DNA from: an uncultured Chlamydiae bacterium
Lineage (GTDB): Bacteria > Chlamydiota > Chlamydiia > Chlamydiales > Parachlamydiaceae
Assembly: GCA_963754655.1 (NCBI GenBank)
Contig: CAVWGN010000001.1
Span: 2,560,001-2,624,000, forward strand
Length of the DNA stretch: 64,000 nt
Direction: 5' to 3'
The translations under genes and the position numbers were made by a program. The notes beneath the pieces were generated by a model. It was not told the DNA's origin. It was given only the letters and a program-made list of their open reading frames with translations, and made no database searches. How positions within the stretch are numbered: position 1 is the first letter of the stretch; each line of letters begins with the position of its first letter. Positions 4,870 to 5,501 of the stretch are shown here, piece after piece.

Positions 4870-5501
4870 AGTCACCTTACGCAAGCGAGGTTAAATAATC
4901 AGCGATATCCTTTAAATAACCAATAGCATGATTTGTTTAATAGCCTGAAAGGCTTCAAAGAAAATAGCCCAAGGCATCGCCCTGGTTTAGGGTGTTAATT
5001 TTGTGCAAAAAATGAGCTTTATTTTTCACAATAATTGGCATAGTTGAATTGAAGGTCAGATGTTTATGCCGTCCTTTCAGGACTCGATGTCTTTTTGATA
5101 GAACCCAGGCCTCCGCTTCGCTGCGACCTGGGCTGTAACATGACGGCCCTTCAGGCCTTAACAAGAGATGTTTAAGTCCCTCTTCTATAGTCCCTAAATC
5201 ATCTTTTTGTTAAGGCCTGAAGGGCCGTCATGTTACAGCCCAGGTCGCAGCGAAGCGGAGGCCTGGGTTCTATCAAAAAGACATCGAGTCCTGAAAGGAC
5301 GGCATAAACATCTGACCTTCAATTCAACTATGCCAATTATTGTGAAAAATAAAGCTCATTTTTTGCACAAAATTAACACCCTAAACCAGGGCGATGCCTT
5401 GGGCTATTTTCTTTGAAGCCTTTCAGGCTATTAAACAAATCATGCTATTGGTTATTTAAAGGATATCACTGATTATTTAACCTCGCTTGCGTAAGGTGAC
5501 T
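4870..5501. mobile_element. fold-back element, family P copy 1 (295-bp arms, 42-bp spacer)
   Basis: 4870-5164 is the reverse complement of 5207-5501 (one mismatch seen); body shared with copies at 15, 49 and 63 kb. Confidence 0.92.

Follow-up and report, generated by a model that had tools for sequence, protein, structure and literature searches.

The giant palindromes in this stretch of DNA are best explained as non-coding mobile DNA whose nested layers were built from the inside out, a reading to which we assign a probability of about 70%. The analysed stretch of 64,000 nucleotides, referred to here as the window, contains four of them, and the original prediction had described these as copies of one non-autonomous fold-back element moved by one mobiliser. 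The non-autonomous character, the resemblance to REPINs and MITEs and the location of the mobilisers outside the window stood up to closer analysis, whereas the single element with a single mobiliser had to be given up, because the arms consist of stacked mobile layers that differ from one another in their ends and in their target duplications. Most of the movement that can be demonstrated is of the DDE/MITE type.

According to the proposed assembly, the seed would have been an inverted pair of three-hairpin units of ~100 nt, which would have become the cargo of a MITE with GGCAT ends and an 8-bp target duplication. The resulting unit of ~298 bp would in turn have ended up centrally within a second MITE, one with TAGGG ends, the order of these steps and the enzymes behind them being suggested by matching ends. 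The insertion site of this second MITE would be the RCCCWGGGY stem in other hairpin units, where ~9 bp would be duplicated, and as those target units lay inside outer MITE shells (the IS630-like shell a, or shell c), the shells would have moved with all their contents. Since the layers are inverted repeats and their targets lie at the centre of a palindrome or symmetrically about it, nesting would lengthen the arms. The arms may have stayed nearly perfect through deletion of the inner remnant that repeated target sites enclose and through copying from arm to arm, presumably by template switching on the hairpin, and a host without the hairpin nuclease SbcCD would probably tolerate such palindromes.

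Palindromes of the window and of the genome

All four sites carry inverted arms, in each case around a 42-nt spacer, and the small hairpins and the spacer sequence were found where the prediction had placed them (Table 1). The four are not, as had been assumed, the same element from end to end. Only a core of 396 bp (4988-5383 in copy 1) is common to them and the outer shells differ, being of kind c in copies 1 and 2 (on the left side only in copy 2) and of kind a in copies 3 and 4. The predicted intergenic position agrees with the list of open reading frames, in which no frame of at least 100 amino acids overlaps any of the four. A flanking duplication was sought around copy 1, and none was recognisable.

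Table 1. Coordinates of the four palindromes and their layers in the window.
Feature	Position	Strand	Remarks
Copy 1, whole palindrome (shell c, core, mirror-image shell c)	4870-5501	.	
Copy 1, arms	4870-5164 / 5207-5501		295 nt, 1 mismatch
Copy 1, layer 4, left shell c	4871-4987	+	end motif (G/C)TCACC, AT-rich tail, small hairpin 4942-4954; also holds part of the central hairpin of unit B, in which the core is inserted
Copy 1, layer 3, 396-bp core	4988-5383	.	terminal inverted repeats starting TAGGGTGTT
Copy 1, layer 2, 298-bp shell	5037-5334	.	ends GGCAT(A/G)GTT(C/G)AA
Copy 1, layer 1, left three-hairpin unit A	5063-5164	+	Acido-Lenti-1 match 5104-5158
Copy 1, asymmetric 42-nt spacer	5165-5206	+	
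Copy 1, layer 1, right three-hairpin unit A	5207-5308	-	Acido-Lenti-1 match 5213-5267
Copy 1, layer 4, right shell c	5384-5500	-	mirror image of 4871-4987
Copy 2, arms	15051-15229 / 15272-15450		179 nt
Copy 2, shell c	14933-15052	+	left side only
Copy 2, 396-bp core	15053-15448	.	layer 2 15103-15398, spacer 15230-15271
Copy 3, arms	49150-49379 / 49422-49651		230 nt
Copy 3, shell a around core 49204-49597	49153-49648	.	layer 2 49252-49549, spacer 49380-49421; ends GTACT...AGTAC, TA duplicated within CTAG, IS630-type
Copy 4, arms	63443-63674 / 63717-63948		232 nt
Copy 4, shell a around core 63498-63893	63446-63945	.	layer 2 63547-63844
Copy 4, spacer	63675-63716		reverse orientation

The palindromes are abundant, as had been supposed. 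In the genome to which the window belongs (3.16 Mb in the two contigs C1 and C2, 38.8% GC), the 632-bp query matches 219 loci with a total of ~71 kb, and 125 of these loci have the spacer. The host is taken to belong to the environmental chlamydiae, since a protein of G009, a genome of the same family, carries the label Parachlamydiaceae and the closest relatives of the Y1 protein are labelled Chlamydiae. Arms of at least 150 nt occur in 47 of the 71 elements with a single spacer and arms of at least 225 nt in 11 of the 71, far above chance. Contig C2:25940-35310 duplicates C1:1-9380 at 99.7% (9.4 kb), probably as an assembly overlap, and a few of the counts given here therefore include duplicates. 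No strand or replichore bias of the spacer was detected, and its gene context, assessed crudely, is close to background. Tandem arrays of 5-7 spacers with shortened arms lie inside one core at C1:1766861-1768294, 2208725-2209860 and 2994750-2995773. The window also holds a fifth palindrome (52956-53452, 497 bp) with shell-a ends and a hairpin cargo resembling the flank of another Y1 gene (L007), which is found at ~67 loci, and at 58783-59008 a member of a further palindrome family, which has ~35 loci and resembles the flank of the Y1 gene L002.

Three-hairpin units and a subclass 1.2 Y1 gene

The innermost layer is an inverted doublet of a unit named here unit A, and 18 such units fold into three hairpins, whose stems show compensatory changes at 8 of their 15 pairs. 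The folding energy of single units is no better than that of shuffled sequences (z -0.3 to -1.7). A search for transposases with the same termini, among them Y1 enzymes of the IS200 type, had been suggested, and such a gene exists: among nine Y1 matches (PF01797) in the genome, the gene L004 (C1:395750-396199), which is of the IS200-like subclass 1.2, is flanked on both sides by inverted unit A, that is by the inner ~100 nt of the palindrome arm. The downstream flank agrees with unit A in 90% over 106 nt and the upstream flank in 80% over 65 nt, and the two flanks are repeated at 135 and 155 loci of the genome. All six intact genes of the subclass 1.2 type have a flank that is repeated at 27-155 loci, compared with 1-3 loci for the ordinary IS200 gene, while 7 of 60 control gene ends reached at least 30 loci. 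L004 and the five other intact genes encode proteins of ~148-149 amino acids with the motifs DH[IV]H or NHVH, WQ and Y---Q--HH and a C-terminal tail. The subclass 1.2 genes of this genome belong to five types with 37-49% identity and are of low copy number; one type is additionally present as a duplicate of 98% identity and in truncated form. Copies of L004 with an internal deletion were observed at nine places (C1:234128, 631251, 960566, 973075, 1345702, 1797265, 2325215, 2444753 and 2793962), mostly between head-to-head units, several of them in a shell of ~420 bp with duplications of 5-6 bp.

The association of gene and repeat is not confined to this genome. For related Y1 genes from several phyla, 80 loci were fetched, 6 were dropped because of short flanks, and inverted flanks were found in 43 of the 74 loci compared as opposed to 2 of 74 mismatched controls. 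In three other genomes (G015, G016 and G024) the best match of the Y1 flank is a repeat of the same genome, and for the flank from the window's genome a repeat of G020 scores slightly higher (144 bits) than its own (139 bits). The unit A repeat is absent or weak in three genomes of the same genus. On sequence grounds, unit A can thus be regarded as the gene-flanking ends of a subclass 1.2 Y1/HUH transposase, which would be expected to bind and cut it. A unit-A doublet free of a DDE-type shell was not seen, and even the deleted copies of L004 sit in a shell with duplications of 5-6 bp, so that movement by the Y1 enzyme is something we infer.

A RAYT as mobiliser, which had also been considered, does not fit. 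The L004 protein reaches only 22.8 bits against the RAYT model NF047646 (cut-off 80) and passes the IS200/IS605 model NF033573 with 64.2 bits (cut-off 55), the Y---NP motif is missing, and there is no GT[AG]G foot, the tetranucleotide being absent by reading from both strands of 5063-5164. The motifs DH[IV]H, WQ and Y---Q--HH are those given for TnpA-Y1 subclass 1.2 in the part of Quentin 2018 available to us (PMC6006769), and the length of ~149 amino acids, the C-terminal tail, the low copy number and the divergent paralogues also agree. In Table 1 of that paper subclass 1.2 is listed with REP "no" (PMC6006769), whereas in this genome the flanks of such genes are inverted three-hairpin units that recur at up to 155 loci. 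Subclass 1.2 is probably identical with the IS200 Group 3 of Bertels 2017, which has no duplicates and abundant flanking 16-mers (PMC5581495); these 16-mers are left undescribed in the accessible sections of that article.

Compared with REPINs and REPtrons, as far as the consulted parts of two papers describe them (PMC3116915; PMC3733652), the likeness lies in an inverted doublet of hairpin units dispersed between genes, in a cognate low-copy Y1 gene with the same flanking units and in several gene/repeat pairs per genome. Differences are the units of ~100 nt with three hairpins, the conserved spacer, the lack of the GT[AG]G foot, the enzyme on the IS200 side and the position of the doublet within DDE-type shells with target duplications. 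REP dimers inside longer palindromes are mentioned in the part of Di Nocera 2013 that we consulted (PMC3733652).

DDE-type shells around the units

Outside the doublet, the arms run 26-35 nt further to the layer 2 ends GGCAT(A/G)GTT(C/G)AA. Free copies of this layer, defined as those in which both ends lack the two known enclosing shells, number 17; an exact duplication of 8-9 bp flanks 6 of them and one of 8 bp with at most one mismatch flanks 10, as opposed to 2 of 272 mismatched-pair controls. The end occurs in multiple copies in seven other genomes (G319, G006, G415, G009, G411, G421 and G022), with 219 matches in G319. In other genomes it encloses other cargo, for example a doublet of the unit A type in G421, and exact 8-bp duplications were found in three of eight cases. 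In G009, the ends bound a complete element of 1.8 kb (L315) with an open reading frame of ~510 amino acids (family ~508), and the right end lies 3' of the reading frame in seven of nine loci of that genome; L315, the only complete layer 2 element, has no exact duplication. Its transposase family, which includes L303 of G009, has more than 5000 relatives and matches no Pfam or NCBIfam model. Its neighbours in the Atlas include ISL3- and mutator-like clusters, and the predicted model (pLDDT 78) is most similar to Hermes/ISCth4, with E 7e-5 and a TM score of ~0.3. A matching transposase was sought in the window's genome with zero matches. Judged by its ends and its duplications, layer 2 is a MITE of an apparently uncatalogued DDE family. 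An alternative layer 2 shell of 436 bp (C1:1081502-1081937 and five more) has an exact duplication in five of six pairs, of 6 bp in four pairs and 10 bp in one.

The 396-bp core forms layer 3. Its ends, starting TAGGGTGTT, occur 185 times in the genome and form 80 pairs, 43 of them uninterrupted, and the core is inserted into other repeats at RCCCWGGGY or CCCCGGGG sites. The empty junctions reconstructed for the two commonest types with unlike flanks occur ~30 times in the genome. In cores of the f/c type, a 9-bp repeat with at most one mismatch is present in five of eight cases; of the 48 cores whose flanks are unlike, 11 are compatible with direct and 12 with inverted 9-bp flanks (at most one mismatch), two arrangements that are hard to separate since the target is nearly palindromic. 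Clearer duplications come from G009, where a 151-bp MITE has the layer 3 ends without hairpin units and all three complete copies show exact 9-bp duplications.

Both layer 3 ends bound a two-ORF element in G020 (L207), and the left end alone was found on an element of a metagenome contig (L161), the one match that led to a transposase among 43 matches in metagenomes, most of which look like chance. The transposase has the invariant residues D88, D156, D182/H185 and E350, and its predicted model (pLDDT 88) resembles Hermes/ISCth4 with E 9e-7 and a TM score of ~0.4. L161 and the relatives from the window's genome match no Pfam or NCBIfam family, no PDB sequence matches the layer 2 or layer 3 transposases, and no alignment between these two families was obtained. 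Four elements (L203, L204, L207 and L161) belong to this two-ORF DDE family, in which three or more types of ends occur, the duplications measure ~9 bp and the reading frames meet at an A-run. A transposase with the layer 3 ends was not found in the window's genome, which holds only relatives of 27-31% identity with other ends, namely a 1844-bp insertion sequence in 10 copies and one more element, both with the same target and a 9-bp duplication. It is possible that the 1844-bp insertion sequence or its relative cross-mobilises the core. The shared ends and duplications make layer 3 a MITE of what appears to be an uncatalogued two-ORF DDE insertion sequence.

For the outermost layer, insertion sequences of the IS630 type provide a simple rule, as they insert at CTAG and duplicate its TA. 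Shell a shows this duplication: CTAG is present at 146 of 219 ends, T and A being most constant, and on both sides in 39 of 74 pairs. It also exists as a 158-bp element and around other cargo. An IS630 element of this genome (two copies; NF033545, 206 bits) shares the first five end bases with shell a and uses CTAG sites, while the remaining bases differ. A multi-copy DDE_Tnp_1 element (C1:344227, 564192, 988820 and ~20 more) was also noted, several copies of which adjoin shell-a ends at CTAG. Shell c contains part of a second Y1-type unit, unit B, and five of nine pairs have exact duplications of 7-8 bp, including 601- and 602-bp versions of the copy 1 palindrome. An autonomous partner of shell c was found neither in this genome nor in 60 relatives, DNA of both shells is absent from the 60 relatives apart from one weak match, and a scan of the intervals between shell-c or shell-a ends for transposases yielded, among the matches listed, only unrelated nested insertion sequences. 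IS701, IS1595 and IS6 were considered as mobilisers of the shells and discarded, as no such gene was found in the genome. In 11 of the 16 shell-a cores, and in 1 of the 27 others, both arms carry one particular core variant, although these copies are not independent; as the variant travels with shell a on both arms, the composite was apparently amplified as a unit.

Non-coding elements of 100-600 bp that share terminal inverted repeats with insertion sequences and carry target duplications are typical of bacterial MITEs, to judge from the sections of the review at hand (PMC10969869). Different here are the nesting of three or four layers symmetrically into one palindrome and the two partner transposase families without a Pfam or NCBIfam model. 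RUP and Correia elements are IS630-derived bacterial MITEs.

The units also receive insertion sequences at fixed positions. Within unit A, this applies to 10 of 10 copies of a 1458-bp insertion sequence, to 5 of 5 copies of an IS481-like element and to 5 of the 6 full-length copies examined of an 835-bp insertion sequence. The hairpins are landing sites for currently active insertion sequences. Several insertion sequences at fixed hairpin positions are also a feature of REP-targeting insertion sequences in the portion of Tobes and Pareja 2006 available to us (PMC1525189); here at least five types, of DDE families, and non-autonomous derivatives meet on one repeat system.

The strongest competitor, which we nevertheless regard as unlikely, would treat each palindrome as a giant REPIN: the subclass 1.2 Y1 enzyme would recognise the hairpins and move the whole palindrome as single-stranded DNA, with passive shells and short repeats as by-products. 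In its favour, the cognate Y1 gene is intact with its HUH and Tyr motifs, the DDE genes of layers 2 and 3 were not found in this genome, duplication lengths differ by layer (2 to 9 bp), and each large palindrome family examined contains units of one of the Y1 genes of this genome. However, each duplication length is tied to one specific end pair, the layer ends are found elsewhere as the borders of DDE elements and on MITEs that lack the hairpins, and the Y1 protein fails the RAYT model. DDE-type target duplications are not known from IS200-type Y1 enzymes.

Arm symmetry and the remaining explanations

In the 43 uninterrupted cores, the two arms differ by 0.62% within a copy and by 1.97% between copies. 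Variants lie on both arms in 66 cases, compared with 11.6 expected, and the private variants comprise 15 on both arms and 18 on one arm only. The core arms have thus been copied onto each other, for which template switching on the hairpin would be a suitable mechanism. In the outer modules, the within/between values are 0.103/0.107 for a, 0.092/0.12 for f and 0.039/0.117 for c, so that shell c is homogenised, whereas the averages for shell a and module f show no homogenisation. Like outer flanks are paired in 30 of 80 cores (12.2 expected), and the flank pairs a/c, b/c and b/f are missing among the 80. Random shuffling of flanks by recombination was rejected on this account, as some unlike pairs never occur; the pattern fits insertion at symmetric sites of palindromic hosts, presumably followed by loss of the inner remnant.

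Arm-to-arm copying, the excess of like flanks and the lack of a duplication at copy 1 could also be taken to mean that the symmetry arose in place, a short doublet having been lengthened through fold-back synthesis or recombination among dispersed copies, with the large forms being immobile. This is less probable still than movement by the Y1 enzyme, since two versions of ~600 bp carry exact duplications of 7-8 bp, the core variant moves together with shell a, the missing flank pairs rule out random shuffling, and the extensions end at the ends of repeat families and not in unique DNA.

The prediction had suggested looking for SbcCD, the enzyme that in E. coli cuts a 246-bp interrupted palindrome in every replication cycle, according to the part of the study at our disposal (PMC3315005). 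The window's genome gave zero matches to sbcD, with a control detected in 13 of 14 genomes, and no match to sbcC over the cut-off. sbcD exceeds the cut-off in just 4 of the 41 genomes compared, so that its absence is nothing peculiar to this genome and is permissive at most, and a comparison of sbcD with repeat content across the 41 genomes is uninformative. Empty sites in related genomes had also been expected, and the site of copy 3 bears this out in part: the genes for HAD and nadD abut in one genome of the same genus (G001) and are 590 bp apart in the window's genome, but this holds for only one of the three same-genus genomes, with 2.3 kb between the two genes in G002 and nadD not beside HAD at the loci of G003. 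A further empty site, suggested at read level by a joint in the run X1, was set aside, as the letters at the joint match the flank of another copy in the window's genome.

A host function of the units is suggested by Rfam. Unit A matches Acido-Lenti-1 (RF01687) with its second and third hairpins at 36.4 bits (E 2e-6), narrowly under the gathering cut-off of 37 bits, at which no match was obtained in the window or at five Y1 loci. Both flanks of a related Y1 gene (L038) are over the cut-off (45 bits), and relatives reach 45 and 39.6 bits. Matches to miRNA and U6 families at loose thresholds were dismissed as chance or as derived from the palindromes. In the part of Weinberg 2010 that was accessible, Acido-Lenti-1 is catalogued as a probable small RNA of unknown function (PMC2864571), and two preprints from 2026, likewise consulted in part, still call its function unknown. 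The literature search, which largely left aside subscription papers as well as the discussion and the gene-context supplements S1 and S3 of PMC2864571, returned no account of this repeat or of a link between Acido-Lenti-1 and Y1 genes. The motif covered by the family behaves here as a transposase-flanking DNA repeat. That the units are kept for the host as structured RNAs, terminators or protein-binding sites agrees with the compensatory changes in conserved stems and with the entry in Rfam, but we consider it very improbable in view of the high copy number, the lineage-specific spread, the inverted pairing around a transposase gene, the frequent disruption by insertion sequences and an orientation of flanking genes that is without clear bias in a crude count of reading frames.

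That the perfect arms are partly an artefact of assembly or polishing is hardly credible: the assembly is imperfect, as the overlap of C2 with the start of C1 shows, but 18 private variants are confined to one arm, related doublets are present in seven other genomes, and contigs of one public soil run, a weak support because the run may be related to the source sample, hold the core at a depth of 117-335, unique flanks being at 2-3, and extend a short way across the arm-spacer-arm junction.

Under the preferred reading of nested mobile layers, the parts themselves are ordinary, as a REPIN-like doublet, MITEs, REP-targeting insertion sequences and palindrome correction are all on record in the consulted portions of the literature (PMC3116915; PMC8049555; PMC3733652; PMC10969869). 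Unusual is the symmetric four-layer nesting, and the assignment of each layer to a transposase type is newly worked out. It points to a concrete way in which a bacterium may gain more than 100 palindromes of 300-630 bp, a size that E. coli SbcCD cuts (246 bp in the accessible part of PMC3315005). It also names a candidate substrate for the uncharacterised subclass 1.2 Y1 enzymes, suggests a DNA-repeat reading of Acido-Lenti-1, and links two DDE families without Pfam or NCBIfam models, one of which inserts at a 9-bp hairpin site, to particular ends, targets and lengths of duplication. More tentatively, and with the odds rather against it, the subclass 1.2 Y1 enzymes could constitute a second, independent REP-like system that actively spreads three-hairpin units, the orphan Acido-Lenti-1 motif, and regenerates their symmetry. 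In a host without SbcCD, the units would then serve as a hub for several DDE families, two of them uncatalogued, and nesting together with arm copying would produce self-extending palindromes that change their mobiliser with every outer shell.

Two other kinds of repetition were observed in the window. Tandem gene duplications with a spacing of ~1.4 kb lie at 29875-32372 and 37303-39617; the duplicates are 80-98% identical, and the copies scanned have no NCBIfam match. Repeat proteins are encoded at 15526-17988, 24720-25919 and 26974-28806. Three reading frames consist of 60-nt repeats, and one of these three weakly matches an LRR effector model; a further reading frame, of the pentatricopeptide-repeat type, has repeats of 105 nt.
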